Source: a virus (lineage: Duplodnaviria > Heunggongvirae > Uroviricota > Caudoviricetes). From it: a stretch of 33,668 nucleotides of DNA. How positions within the stretch are numbered: the stretch's first letter is position 1; the number at the start of each line of letters is the position of its first letter. The DNA is taken from the IMG/VR virus record IMGVR_UViG_2703718791_000013. One strand, 5' to 3'. A program made the translations under genes and the position numbers. Below are positions 11,194 through 33,668 of this stretch, one piece after another. Under the pieces are notes generated by a model, which did no database searches, was not told where the DNA came from, and saw nothing but the letters and a program-made list of their open reading frames with translations.

Positions 11194-11389
11194 GTATTTT
11201 TAAGTCACGAATGCTATCTTTTCGCATCATATTGACCTTTTAATCGTTCAGGCTTATAGTTCCGCCGTCGTAGCAAATTCTGCGACCGGGTTTAGCAGCC
11301 TGAATGATTGTGCGGACAGCCGCAGATATCCGATATTGCGGTATTTTTGTGTCCGTAAAACCGCGTTACGCCCAAATTATGGTGGGGCG

Positions 11390-11480
11390 TGATGGGGAGG
11401 CTTCGGCCTGCTGGTTTCACAATCGCCAGTCTGCTAACCCCGTCACGTCCTGCCACCTGTTTAGCAGCGGGTAGCAGGTT
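11390..11480 (+). ncRNA. c4: Probable c4-like antisense RNA region (exact ends not determined)
   Basis: Inferred from P1 immI organisation (operator, c4, icd, ant). Region between the operator and icd contains complementary segments (ctgctaacc / ttagcag / gggtagcag). Boundaries are a guess. Confidence 0.3.
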
Positions 11481-14904: not shown

Positions 14905-14989
14905 TACAATCGTTGCGGGTGCTTGAGGCTATCTGCTTCAGGCATTACCCGAAAAGCAGATAGAAGAAAGCCCCAGATAACATTACGCG

Positions 14990-15060
14990 TCCTGCAAGAC
15001 GCTTAACATTAATCTGAGGCAATATCTATGCTTAGCATACGTAGATTAGCCTCTTACCGA
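14990..15060 (-). ncRNA. sok: Putative Sok-like antisense RNA (position inferred, not read directly)
   Basis: Inferred only from hok/sok architecture, in which the antisense RNA overlaps the mok translation start (mok ATG at 15028). Confidence 0.25.
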
Positions 15061-15234
15061 CCAAAAGGTCAAGGAGAAGCAGGCTATGAAGCAGCAAAAA
15101 GCGATATTAATCGCTCTGATCGTCATCTGTTTAACCGTCATTGTGACGGCACTGGTAACGAGGAAAGACCTCTGCGAGGTACGAATCCGAACCGGCCAGA
15201 CGGAGGTCACTGTCTTCACAGCCTACGAATCTGA
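15028..15234 (+). CDS. mok: Mok-like reading frame overlapping hok, 68 aa
   Basis: ORF track. Overlaps the hok frame out of phase, as in hok/mok/sok loci. Confidence 0.5.
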   Translation: MLSIRRLASYRPKGQGEAGYEAAKSDINRSDRHLFNRHCDGTGNEERPLRGTNPNRPDGGHCLHSLRI

Positions 15235-28766: not shown

Positions 28767-31027
28767 AAGAGCTGTGCTATGGATCTGTTTGCAGTGGAAT
28801 TGAAGCCGCGAGTATTGCCTGGGAACCGTTGGGTATGCGTCCGGCGTGGTTTGCTGAAATCGAGCCTTTTCCATCTGCCGTTCTTGCGCACCGCTGGCCC
28901 CATGTCGCCAACCTTGGCGACATGACAAAACTTGCCAAAAAAGTCCTGGCTGGGGAAATCGAATCCCCTGATGTGCTCGTCGGGGGAACACCTTGTCAGG
29001 CATTCAGTATCGCTGGATTACGTGGTGGGCTTGATGATGAGCGTGGCGCGCTAACTTTAAAGTATGTGGAGCTTGCAAATGCAATTGACGACAAACGGGC
29101 TGAGTCATTTCTCAAACCAGCCGTTATCGTCTGGGAAAATGTCCCAGGAGTCTTGTCATCGGCAGATAACGCCTTCGGATGTTTCCTTGCCGGATTGGCT
29201 GGAGAAGATGCGCCATTTGAACCAGGTGATCGACCTGAATCAGGAAAAAGTAACGCGTTCTGGCGGTGGGATGGCAAAACCGGTTGCCATGCTCCAAAGT
29301 GGCCACAGTGTGGTTGTATTTATGGACCGCAGCGAAAGGTGGCCTGGAGAATCCTTGATGCCCAATACTTCGGAGTGGCACAACGACGCCGACGCGTGTT
29401 TGTTGTCGCAAGTGCTCGAACAGACCTCGATCCCGCAACGGTACTTTTTGAGTTCGAAGGCGTGCGCCGGAATATTGCGCCGAGCCGAAAAAAGAAGGAA
29501 ATCGCTTCCGCCATTACTGCAAATGGCGCTGCAATCAGTGGCGAAAGCCTAAATCCATGCCTACACGCTGGCATGTCCCCCGGTATGAAATCGACGAAAG
29601 CCGTAAACGGTTTCAGGATGGCGGCATTTGGGGAATATATTGACGATGAAACCGCATCGACAGTAAAGGCAAGAGACTTTAAAGATGCCACTGACCTTGC
29701 CGTTTTTAGCAGCACAGGAGCAGGTTTTTGGTCAGAAGGGCATGGTACATTGCGGGCACGTGAGCAAGAAAGCCATGAGCATCTTGTTACATTGGCTTTT
29801 CCTGAGCGTATGAGCGGTACACAACATGCTGCAACTAAGAATACTTCACCATCTCTAATGGCTAAAAATCCAACAGCTGTTTGCTATGAAGTAAGAAACG
29901 CAGAAGTAGCTGTCCGCCGTCTTACCCCTGTCGAATGTGAAAGGCTGCAAGGTTTTCCTGATGGGCATACGTTGATCCCGACGGAAAAGCGTAAAAAAGT
30001 TAATTCAGATGAACTGGCATATCTTCGCAATCACTATCCAGATTTAAGCGAAGAAGAGGCCGCGATGCTTGCAGCTGACGGACCGCGTTACAAAGCGATC
30101 GGCAATAGTATGGCAATACCAGTAATGCGCTGGATTGGCGATCGGATTACTAAGGCCGTATGTCGGCAGAAAGAAGGAAGTGAAACAAAAGAGCGAAAAG
30201 TTAAACCAGCGGCAGAATTCGAACGGTCCATATTCAAATGGGCTGGTGGAAAATTTGGTGTTCTGGAACAAATCTTTCGCTATTTGCCAGAAGGGAAGCG
30301 CCTGATTGAACCTTTCGTTGGTGGCGGAGCTGTCTTCATGAATGCCGGATACCAGGAAAATCTGCTAAATGATGTGAATGCTGACCTGATTAACTTTTAC
30401 AAGACTCTGCAACGCGAGGCGCATTCACTTATCACTCTGGCACATCGTTTCTTCCAGGACTACAACACACAGGAAGGATACCTGGCAGTACGGAATGCGT
30501 TTAACAAACAAGTCTATGATGATTTACATCGCGCAGCGGCGTTTTTGTTCCTGAACCGACATTGTTTTAACGGATTGACGCGTTACAACCAGGCCGGTGA
30601 GTTCAATGTCGGTTATGGGAAGTATAAAACTCCGTATTTCCCATTACAGGAGATGGAAACCTTCCTCGGTGCGGAAGGGCGGTCTGAGTTTGTATGCGGT
30701 GATTTTGCAGCGGTGATTGAAGCTGCCGGAGAAGGAGATGTCATCTTTTGCGATCCGCCGTATGAACCGCTTCCAAATACAGAGGGATTCACGAACTATT
30801 CCGGTCATGACTTTAAGTTTGAAGAGCAAAAACGCCTGGTGTCTCTGTTGACGGATGCTCATCGTCGAGGTGCAAAGGTTCTCATTACTAACAGTGGCGC
30901 GCCAAACATCAGAGAGCTTTATCATGACAGTGGCTTCAGAGTGGAACCTCTTTTTGCCAGACGTTCTGTGTCTTGTAAGGGGGACACTCGAGGTGTAGCT
31001 CATGACGTTTTGGGTATATTGCTCTAA
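28763..31027 (+). CDS. dmt: Bifunctional DNA methyltransferase: N-terminal C5-cytosine MTase domain fused to a C-terminal Dam-like N6-adenine MTase domain, 754 aa
   Basis: ORF track, GTG start overlapping the hrdC stop. C5-MTase motifs [22 protein letters not shown] and ENVPGV in the N-terminal half. Dam motifs FKWAGGK and DPPY in the C-terminal half. Confidence 0.85.
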
Positions 31028-31047
31028 TAAATTTATTAGTGTAATAT
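31018..31047 (+). promoter_or_regulatory. Perfect C1 operator (ATTGCTCTAATAAATTT) within a 16-bp palindrome, coincident with a promoter (TTGCTC, 17-nt spacer, TAATAT)
   Basis: Operator is an exact consensus match and overlaps the dmt stop codon. CTAATAAATTTATTAG is its own reverse complement. The -35 and -10 hexamers are spaced by 17 nt. Confidence 0.65.
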
Positions 31048-31208
31048 CGCCTCAATGAATCGTGATTTATAGAGCGATTTAGCTGTTAGCCGCGACAGGC
31101 GCGGCGGTAAGCATGGCTGGGCCTAGTCCTCCCAGACAAACCACCGAGTTGCCAGGTTGACCATGCGCCTAAGTGGCAACCCCGAAGTGCGTTACGAGCT
31201 TCCAGTTT

Positions 31209-31234
31209 GCCCATCTTCGGGTGGGCGTTTTTTT
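31209..31234 (+). terminator. Intrinsic terminator (gcccatc-ttcg-ggtgggc then an 8-T run)
   Basis: Hairpin plus T-run about 180 nt downstream of the promoter at 31018-31047, with no ORF in between. Confidence 0.45.
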
Positions 31235-31415
31235 CAGGGTTTTCGTCATGGTTAGCGACTTTGCGGCGGTTTAGAAACTGACCATTAAAGTAAATGCAAA
31301 CGATGATCTGATGATGGTAGCGGCCTAAGAAGCCAGATGCCACGGGGTATGAGTCGTCCCCCGTCAAAAAATCGACCGCAGAGTGTCCCCGTCTGTGTAT
31401 TAGGGAACGGGGAGG

Positions 31416-31496
31416 CACAACAGGTAAGGGCGCTGGTGTGATTAACCAGATGAACGAGAAGGGGCCATCTGTTGGTCAGCGTCCTTTCCTGTTGCG
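31416..31496 (+). repeat. Long-stem hairpin element E (CACAACAGGTAAGGG ... CCTTTCCTGTTG family)
   Basis: Closing stem of about 18 bp with one mismatch. Followed by a T-rich run. Member of the five-copy family described in the findings. Confidence 0.5.
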
Positions 31497-31699
31497 TTTT
31501 CTTTTCAGCGTAACAGCGGTGCTTAACAGCACTTTGGGTACAGTTCCACGAATTTACGGGTATATCCCGTCATGCTGAAGGCGCTAATCACGCTGGAAGC
31601 CAGGGTTGTGCATCCCCTGTTACCGAATTGCAGCCAGGGCGCGGTGCGCCGAAAAGCATACGGAGGTGGAAGCCCTCGCCGGAGACGTACCCGGCAAGT

Positions 31700-31775
31700 G
31701 ATGGTGTAGCTCAGCGGTTAGAGCGGTTGACTGTTAATCAACGGGTCGATGGTTCAAATCCATCCACCATCGCCA
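31700..31775 (+). tRNA. tRNA-Asn (anticodon GTT), with encoded CCA
   Basis: Hand-folded cloverleaf: acceptor GATGGTG/CACCATC, D-stem GCTC/GAGC, anticodon stem GTTGA/TCAAC with loop CTGTTAA, T-arm GATGG-TTCAAAT-CCATC, discriminator G, CCA. Confidence 0.85.
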
Positions 31776-31777
31776 AT

Positions 31778-31853
31778 GCCGGTTTAGCTCAGTTGGTAGA
31801 GCGCCTGCCTTGTAAGCAGGATGTCAGCGGTTCGAGTCCGTTAATCGGCACCA
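31778..31853 (+). tRNA. tRNA-Thr (anticodon TGT), with encoded CCA
   Basis: Hand-folded cloverleaf: acceptor GCCGGTT/AATCGGC (one G-U), D-stem GCTC/GAGC, anticodon stem CCTGC/GCAGG with loop CTTGTAA, T-arm AGCGG-TTCGAGT-CCGTT, discriminator A, CCA. Only 2 nt after tRNA-Asn. Confidence 0.85.
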
Positions 31854-31854
31854 G

Positions 31855-31964
31855 CACAACAGGTAAGGGTATTTTGCGACGTCGGAGATCGCCGAGCTTG
31901 GCAGAGGGTTCGAATCCCTACGAAGTACCCTTACCGTTGTGATGAATGCGCAGGCTGATGCGCG
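31855..31964 (+). repeat. Long-stem hairpin element A, with an internal tRNA T-arm-like hairpin (GAGGGTTCGAATCCCT) and a 3' hairpin GCGCAGGCTGATGCGC
   Basis: Stem CACAAC-a-GGTAAGGGTA pairs perfectly with TACCCTTACC-GTTGTG. Starts 2 nt after the tRNA-Thr CCA. Confidence 0.5.
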
Positions 31965-32060
31965 AAAGACATTGCAGCTATTGCGGAAAAGAGCTGTTCG
32001 GCGGGGCAATTAAACGCCCGTGAGAGTCTGAAATAACCGCAAGCCGGAGATCAGCACCGG

Positions 32061-32142
32061 TCATCACAACACAACAGGTAAGGGCATTCTCCCTTATGGA
32101 GCTTGACTTAAATGCATCGAGTGCTCTTACCGTTGTGATGAA
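32061..32142 (+). repeat. Long-stem hairpin element B
   Basis: Outer stem TCATCACAAC/GTTGTGATGA (10 bp perfect) and inner stem GGTAAGGGCATTC/GAGTGCTCTTACC, in which the only two non-Watson-Crick positions are G-U pairs. Confidence 0.5.
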
Positions 32143-32273
32143 GTGCAGCTCTTTGAAGCAACCAGAAGATAAGCATCTGGCTTCACAACATAAACCGCAG
32201 GAACGACCAATAAACGGTAGTCCGTATGGAGAACACCCCGTTGAGGAAGAGGCCTGGCCGGAACCGTAACCGG

Positions 32274-32395
32274 CACTATAACGTTGAGAACACTGGCGTA
32301 ACGGGGTCATATCCCAATCTACGAATAAATGTTGCGTTGCAGCGTGACAACCAGTGTTCTCAACATTGTGGTGAATGCACAGGCTGATGTGCCGC
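32274..32395 (+). repeat. Long-stem hairpin element C (different stem sequence, same architecture) plus 3' hairpin GCACAGGCTGATGTGC
   Basis: 23-bp stem CACTATAACGTTGAGAACACTGG / CCAGTGTTCTCAACATTGTGGTG. Interior TAACGGGGTCATATCCCAATCTAC is shared with element D. The 3' hairpin shows compensatory changes relative to element A. Confidence 0.5.
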
Positions 32396-32552
32396 AACTA
32401 CAGTAGTGCGCGCTTTGCGGGGCTTGCTACAACCCTGTGTCGGAGTTCAGCACCGACCATCACAGTTTGATTCTCTGGCATGAGCATAACGCTGAAATAA
32501 GTCCAGTCTGGTGCGGCCCGATCACCCGCCGTTAGCTCCACGAAACGGAGCA

Positions 32553-32645
32553 CGTAACAGGTAAGAGCATTCTCCTGTAACGGGTTCATATCCCAATCTA
32601 CAGGTCCACCAGGAATGCTCTTTCCGTTGCGGTGAATGCGGCTAA
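32553..32645 (+). repeat. Long-stem hairpin element D
   Basis: Stem GGTAAGAGCATTC(tc)CTG / CAGGAATGCTCTTTCC with outer CGTAAC/GTTGCG. Interior TAACGGGTTCATATCCCAATCTAC. Confidence 0.5.
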
Positions 32646-32737
32646 GCGCACGCGGAACAGTTAAAACAATCCTCCTTAATGGTTAAACATTCCGACGTTA
32701 ATTGTTAACTGGTTAACGTCACCGGGAGGCACTCGGC

Positions 32738-32757
32738 ACCGCAATCTAATAAATATG
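32738..32757 (+). promoter_or_regulatory. Degenerate C1-operator-like site (GCAATCTAATAAATATG) upstream of tciA
   Basis: Retains the CTAATAAAT core but the 5' half diverges from the operator consensus. Confidence 0.3.
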
Positions 32758-32780
32758 TCACTTTTATTGAGGGATAACCA

Positions 32781-33215
32781 ATGTTCGGTAAATTGTTCGG
32801 CAAGAAAGTCGCTTCTGCAAAAGTAGAGCTGAAAAAAGTTGAGAATCGCGATCTGATGGAGGCCATCATCGGTGGCTGTTTGTTGGTGTCTGCCGCTGAT
32901 GGTGAAATCGAAAAAGAAGAAACAGCGAAACTTGATCAGCTTGTCCGCTCTAATCCGCGTCTTAGTCATTTTGGTAACGAAATTACTGCAACAATTACCC
33001 GCTTTACCGAGCAACTGGAAGCTGGCTTCCGTGTTGGTCGCATGAATATCCTTCGCGAAATTGAAGATATCAAAAACGATCCAAAAGAAGCGGAAGAAGT
33101 ATTCGTTAACATGCTGACAATTGCAGAAGCGGACGGTGAAATCGAGCCAGCAGAACACAAAGTACTGGAAGAAGTAGGCCGTCGTTTAGGTCTTCGTGTG
33201 GAAGATTATCTGTAA
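32781..33215 (+). CDS. tciA: TerB-family protein (tellurite-resistance-like), 144 aa
   Basis: ORF track. Two AADGEIE / AEADGEIE segments characteristic of TerB. Position matches P1 tciA. Confidence 0.7.
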   Translation: MFGKLFGKKVASAKVELKKVENRDLMEAIIGGCLLVSAADGEIEKEETAKLDQLVRSNPRLSHFGNEITATITRFTEQLEAGFRVGRMNILREIEDIKNDPKEAEEVFVNMLTIAEADGEIEPAEHKVLEEVGRRLGLRVEDYL

Positions 33216-33322
33216 TGGCAAGCAAGGCACGTATCGCAATCGCCATTGGTTTTCTCTTGCTGTCCGTGCTGGTGGATTTCACCAGCACAATCCTGTCAGT
33301 TTTATCGGACGGGGCGTTGTGA
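33215..33322 (+). pseudogene. Truncated membrane-protein gene (35 codons), reading frame ended by the TGA of the IS inverted repeat; probably a disrupted tciB
   Basis: ATG overlaps the tciA stop (TAATG). Encodes MASKARIAIAIGFLLLSVLVDFTSTILSVLSDGAL, then a stop supplied by the first three bases of the IS terminal repeat at 33320. Confidence 0.45.
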
Positions 33323-33668
33323 ACCGCCCCGGGTTTCCTGGAGAGTATTTTATCTGTGAACTCAGGCTGCCAGATCATTATTTCCGATGGAAGCATAATA
33401 AGCTTTTTCTGCTTCTGCCGGAGGAATATGGCCCAGCCTTTCCAGCAATCGTCGATTGTTATACCAGTCCACCCACGTTCGTGTGGCCAGTTCCACTTCT
33501 GTCCGGTTTTTCCAGCTATTACGGTGTATTACCTCCGCTTTGTAAAGACCATTGATGCTCTCAGCCATCGCGTTGTCATACGAGTCGCCAGTACTCCCTG
33601 TTGATGCCAGTAATCCGGCTTCCTTAAGCCGCTGCGCGTAGGCCAGCGATACATACTGAGAACCTTTA
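33320..33668 (-). mobile_element. IS3-family insertion sequence (IS629/IS3411-like end), right end only; remainder lies beyond the window
   Basis: Terminal inverted repeat TGAACCGCCCCGGGTTTCCTGGAGAGT at 33320, close to the IS629-type end as I recall it. Transposase C-terminus on the minus strand ends about 40 bp inside the repeat. Confidence 0.7.
33362..33668 (-). CDS. IS3-family transposase (OrfB), C-terminal part only
   Basis: ORF track shows 33362..33568, but the frame stays open to the window end. My translation reads ...GSQYVSLAYAQRLKEAGLLASTGSTGDSYDNAMAESINGLYKAEVIHR..., the DDE-region signature of IS3-family transposases. Confidence 0.7.
   Translation of the reverse strand, partial: KGSQYVSLAYAQRLKEAGLLASTGSTGDSYDNAMAESINGLYKAEVIHRNSWKNRTEVELATRTWVDWYNNRRLLERLGHIPPAEAEKAYYASIGNNDLAA

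Follow-up and report, generated by a model that had tools for sequence, protein, structure and literature searches.

The ban leader of a P1-like phage

The 33,668-nucleotide (nt) virus record IMGVR_UViG_2703718791_000013 from IMG/VR (hereafter "the window", the whole stretch of DNA that was analysed) is, as judged from its sequence, derived from a P1-like phage: positions 31000–32800 are 97–99.6% identical to phage P1 and to the P1-like phage-plasmids RCS47 and JL22. This part of the window contains two tRNA genes flanked by five related long hairpins, denoted E1–E5, which are the subject of this report. The hairpin region is bounded on its left by dmt, which ends at 31027, and on its right by tciA, which starts at 32781. 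In the reference P1 record, the order is operator Op72 with promoters P1ban and P2ban, a dicF-like region, trnA (Asn), trnT (Thr), plp and upl, tciA, tciB, tciC, trnI and ban, with plp and upl entered as coding sequences on the minus strand.

No sigma-70-like promoter other than Pban was found in 30950–32850, and the transcript bearing all of the hairpins would start at Pban. On sequence grounds, the E1–E5 region is the untranslated leader (≈1.75 kb) of the C1-repressed ban operon, read from left to right. This leader is homologous to the non-coding ydfC–dicF–dicB stretch of the cryptic prophage Qin of Escherichia coli K-12. Positions 31086–31240 match the Qin sequence right before dicF, and the dicF-like region is homologous to sequence immediately upstream of dicF; positions 32628–32780 match the Qin dicB leader. 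The features of the region are collected in Table 1.

Table 1. Features of the ban leader, in window coordinates. R1, covariance model; A1 and A3, alignments (see text).
Feature	Position	Strand	Evidence
Pban promoters and C1 operator Op72	31002–31047	+	Transferred from P1 annotation (L001 1503–1548)
dicF-like region with intrinsic terminator (31205–31236) at its end	31142–31243	+	P1 annotation; terminator scan; comparison with Qin (L132 1965–2060)
E1	31416–31496	+	Fold −42.0 kcal/mol, z −4.5; inverted repeat I2; fits A3 stem
Possible sixth, degenerate member	31510–31623	+	Hairpin finder and fold; arms GTAACAGCGGTGC... / ...GCATCCCCTGTTAC, inner hairpin ACGGGTATATCCCGT
tRNA-Asn (GUU)	31700–31775	+	ARAGORN; Rfam tRNA 74.5 bits
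tRNA-Thr (UGU)	31778–31853	+	ARAGORN; Rfam tRNA 72.9 bits
E2	31855–31945	+	Fold (31855–31964) −50.9 kcal/mol, z −5.7; R1 19.3 bits; A3
Spacer module	31946–32060	+	Phage matches; mEp460 context; repeats D1 and D2
E3	32061–32142	+	Fold −34.6 kcal/mol, z −3.8; R1 26.6 bits on + vs 17.7 on −
E4	32274–32373	+	Fold (32274–32395) −55.9 kcal/mol, z −4.4; R1 62 bits; A1 covariation
E5	32553–32631	+	Fold (32553–32645) −42.6 kcal/mol, z −3.5; R1 64.8 bits on + vs 21.7 on −
STnc100-like tciA leader	32628–32743	+	Rfam STnc100 42 bits (gathering score 47); Qin dicB leader homologue

Architecture of the hairpins

An initial annotation of the sequence had placed five hairpins here, and both folding and a repeat finder bore this out; all five are at the coordinates given, on the plus strand. 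For each element, the free energy was compared with that of 200 dinucleotide shuffles, and in all five cases none of the 200 shuffles folded as well. The closing stems are 18–25 base pairs (bp) long in all five elements, forming an imperfect duplex of about two helical turns within one transcript, with a conserved bulge or mismatch ≈6–9 bp above the base of each stem. The repeat finder recovered the 5′ arm CACAACAGGTAAGGG in four copies and the 3′ arm with its tail (CTTACCGTTGTGATGAATGC...) also in four, together with the inverted-repeat arms. The compensatory differences that had been described between copies are present in the sequence, both in the outer stem (CACAAC/GTTGTG in E2 vs CGTAAC/GTTGCG in E5) and in the 3′ mini-hairpin (GCGCA..TGCGC after E2 vs GCACA..TGTGC after E4, the latter at 32377–32392). 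The distance between E2 and the CCA end of tRNA-Thr, given previously as 2 nt, is actually 1 nt: the tRNA ends at 31853, followed by a G at 31854 and CACAAC from 31855.

The interiors differ from one element to the next. E1 has the closing stem CACAACAGGTAAGGGCGCTG / CAGCGTCCTTTCCTGTTG around an extended hairpin. The interiors had been described as often resembling a tRNA T-arm. This holds for E2 only (GAGGGTTCGAATCCCT, 31904–31919); in E4 and E5, GGGKTCATATCCC follows the pattern of the initiator-tRNA anticodon arm, with three G–C pairs closing the loop NUCAUAU, which is 7 nt long and contains U33 and CAU. E4 is a three-way junction in which the inner stem P2 bears this motif as GGG-GUCAUAU-CCC (32303–32315), and P3 is a second inner hairpin; in E5 the look-alike reads GGG-UUCAUAU-CCC (32582–32594). 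Some P1-like phages have the E3 module, which the reference P1 genome lacks. Between E2 and E3, the spacer module opens with GATGAATGC and a mini-hairpin (31948–31963) and closes with the hairpin CCGGAGATCAGCACCGG followed by TCATCACAAC; it shares ≈98% identity with the sequence that follows the repressor gene in lambdoid phages. The hairpin at 31510–31623, conserved in D6 and P7, is possibly a sixth, degenerate member of the family.

The hairpins are not canonical tRNAs, as the initial annotation had already concluded for E2. ARAGORN gave tRNA-Asn and tRNA-Thr alone, and the Rfam tRNA model (RF00005) had no match on E1–E5 at E-values up to 10. No Rfam family was found for the hairpins, either at the gathering threshold or at E-values up to 10; weak matches to microRNA families were dismissed, as they reflect the long stems alone.

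Covariation and strand asymmetry

Members of the family were assembled into two alignments. A1 comprises 29 members that have the conserved interior motif, and it supports the closing stem P1, the inner stem P2 and the three G–C pairs under the 7-nt loop. A3 is a two-arm alignment of 34 distinct members, including E1–E5, the Qin element described below and members with unrelated interiors. A covariance model, R1, was also used; it is biased towards the anticodon-arm subclass, and it gave no match on E1. (A further alignment from the model search, A2, mixes in reverse-strand palindromic matches and was excluded from counting, while a generic hairpin finder applied across all loci was too noisy for defining the family.)

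In A1, 93% of the cells are paired and double-sided changes occur in 16 of 23 pairs, values that were reached by none of 500 shuffles; when the partner was slid by 1–3 columns, pairing fell to 39–52%. The corresponding figures for A3 are 92.3% paired, with double changes at 15 of 20 pairs, again matched by 0/500 shuffles, and 35–54% in the slid controls. The irregularities of the stem are themselves recurrent: a bulged A or G is found at column 12 in 21 sequences, and a mismatch is frequent at columns 15/43.

Among the non-Watson–Crick cells of the stem, G·U outnumbers A·C by 53 to 9 on the plus strand (6:1), and R1 scores the plus strand two to three times above the minus strand. From this excess and this asymmetry, it follows that the selected molecule is the plus-strand RNA, the sense of the ban transcript. 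The hairpins are real conserved RNA structures, selected on the plus strand.

Spread and modular organization of the family

The elements are not confined to P1: the family is spread through lambdoid prophages of Enterobacterales. In mEp460 and ST64B, members lie in the early-left operon, immediately after the repressor gene; in Evi and the Stx phage 75/02 they lie upstream of kil, and in a Klebsiella phage between a Q-like gene and the lysis genes, almost always in DNA without annotation. Of 5426 complete E. coli genomes, 2493 contain a 201-nt lambdoid stretch that includes one member, and no annotation covers it. R1 matches were confirmed in Escherichia, Citrobacter, Enterobacter, Kosakonia and Mixta. 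A pattern scan of genome contigs gave mostly chance matches, and R1 confirmed only the seven Enterobacterales loci tested.

Closer to P1, the same modules occur in P7, D6, SJ46, Ro157c2YLVW and IMG/VR contigs, in differing number and order. SJ46 carries a hybrid (L007 2278–2361) whose 5′ half corresponds to E4 and whose 3′ half corresponds to E5, the junction falling within the anticodon-arm motif that the two have in common. Pairing between its arms is lost, and R1 scores it at 34 bits, against 62–65 for E4 and E5; it looks like a deletion between repeats. A DicF-like small RNA with a terminator (UUUGGCGGUACCAGUUUGUAC...; L003 2640–2700) comes after the homologue of the spacer module in mEp460 and lies between two family hairpins, an arrangement also seen at many IMG/VR loci. 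The U-run of its terminator pairs with a GGAGAAA after the next hairpin, lengthening the stem of that hairpin. The Rfam DicF model did not report this RNA at E-values up to 1, and the DicF-like assignment is a reading of the sequence.

This variability bears on the alternative that the hairpins are DNA-level repeats, either miniature inverted-repeat elements or recombination cassettes with 17-bp inverted repeats at their ends, that have no function as RNA and would owe their spread to mobility or to the exchange of modules. The number and order of the modules do differ (P1 lacks E3, D6 and P7 have another module, and SJ46 has the E4/E5 hybrid), and the ends are constant while the interiors vary. 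However, a bias of G·U over A·C and strand-asymmetric model scores would not be expected of duplex palindromes, every copy is oriented with transcription, and the compensatory changes preserve pairing. Nor are the interiors conserved as they are in families of miniature inverted-repeat transposable elements (MITEs), and there was no sign of a transposase or of duplicated target sites; the hybrid of SJ46 resembles a deletion between repeats rather than mobility. We consider this alternative highly improbable. Identity with MITE, repetitive extragenic palindromic (REP) or enterobacterial repetitive intergenic consensus (ERIC) repeats was rejected for the same reasons of unrelated interiors, G·U excess and uniform sense orientation. 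Integron attC sites were rejected as well: the ends CACAAC/GTTGTGA and CGTAAC/GTTGCGG break the RYYYAAC...GTTRRRY consensus, and there is no integron integrase among the nearby open reading frames (ORFs) of the window.

Coding potential of the region

The region had been described as lacking convincing ORFs. This needs qualification, as two coding sequences, plp (putative lipoprotein) and upl, are annotated across E2–E5 in the reference P1 record, spanning 31824–32589 on the minus strand, antisense to tRNA-Thr and the hairpins; the part that stands is that neither is conserved. An encoded Plp and Upl, with the hairpins incidental, would explain the annotation and the minus-strand ORFs of 139, 63 and 61 amino acids that exist in the window. 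It would also fit the up-regulation of upl in an RNA-seq study of P1 (PMC8201110), a result of read counts and not of protein detection; that paper has nothing on the hairpin region beyond this. However, the Plp ORF starts with TTG and crosses the antisense of tRNA-Thr, no Pfam match was found for the ORFs of the region, and the substitutions in the stems are compensatory for RNA pairing. Furthermore, tblastn showed that in relatives the plp and upl frames are truncated, frameshifted or interrupted by stop codons, or have ends that shift with the module content. We give the coding alternative very little credence, and plp and upl are probably mis-annotations. Together with the covariation, the G·U excess and the strand-specific R1 scores, the decay of these frames supports the earlier proposal that selection in this region acts on RNA structure rather than on coding.

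Hairpins adjoining the tRNAs

The tRNA arrays of P1-like phages vary, with Asn or Arg, Tyr, Thr, an extra Ser, and Met/Ile2. Across P1, P7, D6 and the P1-like contigs of IMG/VR, a family hairpin always begins within 1–2 nt after the last tRNA of the array (Thr) and after the extra tRNA-Ser, whichever interior the hairpin carries.

The nuclease P2-OLD is reported to cut the anticodon stems of E. coli tRNAs, that of tRNA-Thr(UGU) fastest and also that of tRNA-Asn(GUU); cells can be rescued from it by phage genes for tRNA-Thr(UGU) (PMC12445682). These two substrates are exactly the two tRNAs encoded at 31700–31853. By eye, the anticodon stem of the tRNA-Thr in the window (CCUGC/GCAGG) retains CNG motifs.

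Homology to a mapped RNase III site in Qin

The Qin member of the family is located at 1871–1959 of the Qin locus (L132), with its 3′ arm at 1939–1958, and was identified both by R1 and as a row of A3. It fits A3 with 18 of 19 pairs, which is better evidence than its R1 score (18.3 bits, E = 0.03). The Qin stem CATAACGCGAAAGCGCA / TGCGCTTCCGGTTGTGG is homologous to that of E5, CGTAACAGGTAAGAGCA / TGCTCTTTCCGTTGCGG, with the bulge in the same column. Like E1–E5, it lies in an untranslated stretch of a repressor-controlled early operon, with flanks homologous to the P1 leader. Unlike in P1, there is a single copy and there are no tRNAs; it has been described as a lone processing site, not as part of a family. 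Its interior contains only a degenerate anticodon-arm-like hairpin (GGUUCAUAGAU).

The 190-nt DicF species is absent without RNase III, confirming Faubladier et al. 1990, and RNase III generates its 5′ end by cutting between positions 813 and 814 of the transcript (preprint 10.1101/2023.04.14.536235). With the dicB promoter hexamers at 1103–1108 and 1126–1131 of L132, the transcript would start at ≈1138–1139, which puts the cut at ≈1950–1952. A second count, 190 nt back from the end of the U-run of the DicF terminator (2140), leads to 1951. By both counts, the cut lies within the 3′ arm of this hairpin, adjacent to the column of the conserved bulge.

A second published RNase III event, which yields the 3′ end of the 72-nt DicF, falls in the GUGAUGUGGUGAAUGC... 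segment of Qin, and an RNA-seq study placed an RNase III-dependent site at genome position 1649470, also within this segment. The site is in the 5′ strand of the dicB leader, the homologue of the tciA leader in P1. The P1 homologue of the GUGAUGUGGUGAAUGC... segment follows E5 and, in a longer fold, pairs with sequence ≈115 nt downstream, in competition with the basal pairs of E5. In this fold (32624–32746), the basal 3′ strand of E5 (GUUGCGGUG) pairs alternatively with CACCGCAAU, closing the STnc100-like tciA leader, so that two mutually exclusive structures are possible.

Because their Qin homologue spans a mapped RNase III cut, we take E1–E5 to be, probably, RNase III processing hairpins of the leader transcript. 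To judge from the sequence, they combine what such a hairpin would need, namely an imperfect stem of two turns, homology to a hairpin with a mapped cut, and sense orientation within a putative polycistronic transcript. Among the roles that had been put forward for the elements, processing of the tRNA transcript is the one now favored, given the mapped site in the Qin member and the hairpins adjoining the ends of tRNA-Thr and tRNA-Ser. In this model, host RNase III would recognize the ≈20–25-bp bulged closing stems, and its cuts would divide the leader into a tRNA-Asn/tRNA-Thr precursor, the inter-hairpin modules and the tciA–ban mRNA. By homology to Qin, cuts are predicted near 31859–31862 and 31934–31936 in E2 and near 32624–32626 in E5. 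The cut in E2 would leave tRNA-Thr with a short 3′ trailer that exonucleases could trim, and the upper parts of the hairpins would be set free as small, stable stem-loop RNAs. The cleavage of the P1 copies, the positions of the cuts and their service to tRNA and small RNA maturation are all inferred by homology with Qin.

Known RNase III processing signals include the early T7 sites R0.3–R1.3, the N-leader and sib of lambda, and the stems that flank rRNA. Like these, the P1 leader has several long, imperfect hairpins between the units of a transcript, with an internal loop or bulge near the (predicted) cut, as substrates for the host RNase III. There is no sequence kinship, however; the units here are tRNAs and small RNAs rather than mRNAs, and the P1 hairpin tips bear conserved domains resembling tRNA fragments.

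Another possibility is that the hairpins shield the leader, either by blocking Rho loading or by modifying RNA polymerase in a put-like manner, so that transcription from Pban reaches tciA and ban ≈2–4 kb downstream. In HK022, the put-type antiterminator RNA forms a tandem pair of stem-loops immediately downstream of pL or pR and acts on RNA polymerase. In favor of this possibility, the leader has ≈1.75 kb without translation and an early intrinsic terminator, and relatives of the hairpins lie in the leaders of long early-left and late lambdoid operons that depend on antitermination. On the other hand, the conserved stem sequence and bulge imply specific recognition, not generic folding, and the elements lie downstream rather than upstream of the sole terminator seen. 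We regard this as improbable. The hairpins were not themselves recognized as intrinsic terminators, the scan of the region giving 31205–31236 alone; E2–E5 are followed by GAUGAAUGC or GGUGAAUGC with no direct U run, and the U-rich tail 3′ of E1 is missing in D6. A nut-like boxA/boxB arrangement (the UGCUCUU of the 3′ arm plus the GGUGAAUGC hairpin) was considered and dropped, as the boxA-like stretch is paired and covarying and P1 lacks an N protein.

A look-alike of the initiator anticodon arm

The P2 stem of E4, E5 and the lambdoid members ends in a tip of the form GGG-NUCAUNN-CCC. The lambdoid copies read GGGCUCAUAACCC, identical over 13/13 nt to the anticodon stem-loop of the E. coli initiator tRNA (tRNA-fMet), with its three G–C pairs and loop CUCAUAA. 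To assess the conservation of the motif, we used 61 distinct lambdoid members gathered by the 3′ tail alone, such that the loop was outside the search. A 7-nt loop is found in all 61, CAU and U33 in 60 each, and GGG/CCC in 56, while loop positions 32, 37 and 38 vary. Other tips are different: the T-arm of E2 is canonical-looking, one relative (L019b) has a different T-arm-like hairpin, and further members have unrelated interiors, some with antisense tRNA-like fragments. Pairing of the CAU loop with AUGAG at downstream start codons is present in some lambdoid copies and absent in others, and this idea was dropped.

The look-alike might be left over from recombination in tRNA arrays. That its loop is nearly invariant speaks rather for a function: it may, for example, be a decoy for a tRNA-directed factor, bind the P site or make a loop–loop contact. 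We found no papers on initiator-anticodon mimics in prophages.

These observations raise the alternative that the hairpins are genes for small stable RNAs whose interior "cargo" mimics tRNA subdomains, acting as a decoy for, e.g., anticodon nucleases, with the stem merely protecting or releasing it. The 13-nt match to the initiator arm, its near-invariance in the 61 members collected by their tails, and the T-arm-like hairpins of E2 and L019b all fit such a role. So does the cleavage by P2-OLD of tRNA-Thr(UGU) and tRNA-Asn(GUU), both encoded here (PMC12445682), in a locus whose tRNAs are likely anti-defence replacements, and release by RNase III would be compatible with it. However, the interiors are unrelated in E1, E3 and many relatives, and the cargo is therefore not family-wide. 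Positions 37/38 vary (AA, UA, UC, AU), and a U at 37 has no counterpart in tRNAs. Nucleases directed at initiator tRNA are not known to act against these phages, and neither the tRNA model nor Y RNA-like models match the elements. On balance, we find this reading rather unlikely. A broader version is more tentative still: a cassette system in which the RNase III stem would free small stable RNAs with tRNA-subdomain tips, above all the initiator anticodon arm, to serve as decoys or inhibitors of tRNA-directed factors of the host or rival prophages (anticodon nucleases) or of the ribosomal P site. With the Thr-UGU and Asn-GUU tRNAs and the tmRNA-like element described below, such cassettes might constitute an RNA-only island for counter-defence and translation control in P1-like phage-plasmids and lambdoid prophages; we think this doubtful.

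Returning to processing by RNase III, several points weigh against it. The cleavage that has been shown is that of the Qin homologue. The mapping of the Qin cut relies on an inferred transcription start and is accurate to ≈3 nt, and the R1 score of the Qin member is weak, R1 being biased to the anticodon-arm subclass. Processing leaves the near-invariant UCAU loop and GGG/CCC stem unexplained, and likewise the frequent interiors that resemble tRNA fragments. Finally, plp, upl and trnT were scored as non-essential for lytic growth in a CRISPR interference (CRISPRi) screen (PMC10695390), so any role of the hairpin region is an accessory one.

Relation to other RNA families

The YrlA and Y RNA-like family (RF02553) was considered and rejected; its only match, at 25.6 bits vs a gathering score of 69, falls on tRNA-Asn and tRNA-Thr. 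YrlA and other tRNA mimics do share with the hairpins a long closing stem with a tRNA-like subdomain at the far end. Unlike YrlA, the hairpins lack an Rsr/Ro context, and their domain is an anticodon arm or a lone T-arm rather than a D/T elbow.

Identity with STnc100 (RF02076) was likewise rejected, since the match, at 42 vs 47 bits, covers only 32628–32743 (the E5 tail and tciA leader) and none of the five hairpins. This sub-threshold match arises because 32628–32780 is homologous to the Qin dicB leader. The resemblance to the STnc100/PasD small RNAs (preprint 10.64898/2026.05.13.724894) lies in the tciA leader and in the tail of GGUGAAUGC and hairpin that comes after E5, which match model positions 31–147, and in a shared location in non-coding regions of lambdoid prophages.

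Other features of the window

Directly upstream of E1, at ≈31238–31330, is a segment resembling transfer-messenger RNA (tmRNA), to which the Rfam permuted-tmRNA model gives 24 bits. It includes a tag-like frame of 10 codons (31296–31328), GCA AAC GAU ... GCG GCC UAA, encoding ANDDLMMVAA-stop and preceded by UAAAU, with the stop codon in the loop of a small hairpin. ARAGORN called no tmRNA there, and no tRNA-like domain was detected in 31238–31330. By blastn, unannotated counterparts that are 70–85% identical to the segment were found in 265 very diverse phage records. Six sequences were aligned, from P1, the Ackermannviridae phiEa2809 and Vi01, the N4-like PD205, the siphovirus KFS-SE2 and the P22-like HK620 (including L302–L306), and all keep a 10-codon AN(D/E)x...(A/V)A-stop at the same place. 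The tag segments adjoin tRNAs or sit in a late leader; the one in PD205 precedes the 5′ arm of a family hairpin.

At the right end of the window (33215–33668), tciB (DUF3927) is truncated at about 33322 by the end of an insertion sequence. The terminal inverted repeat of this element begins with TGAACCGCCCCGGG at 33320, and a minus-strand ORF with an integrase core (rve_3) runs past the end of the window. Rfam also recovered RNAs already known from P1, namely the C4 antisense RNA with its a1/b1 targets and sok of a hok/sok module (11254–11460 and 14917–15091).

Significance

RNase III hairpins in polycistronic phage RNAs are already known, and one member of the present family, that of Qin, was mapped in 1990. 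What appears to be new, and undescribed within a limited literature search, is the covarying family itself, its multiple copies around the P1 tRNAs, its wide spread among prophages, and the subclass with an initiator-anticodon tip. If this interpretation is correct, RNA features would replace two "genes" of the reference P1 genome, plp and upl, and a seemingly empty leader of 1.75 kb would be accounted for. The lone RNase III site of Qin, known since 1990, would become one member of a recurrent phage processing signal, and a model of the family would allow its annotation across Enterobacterales. The near-invariant copy of the initiator anticodon arm is a specific, unexplained RNA motif that would be cheap to test. 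For phage tRNAs, now viewed as tools of counter-defence, the hairpins would offer a concrete and testable route of maturation from a repressor-controlled transcript.

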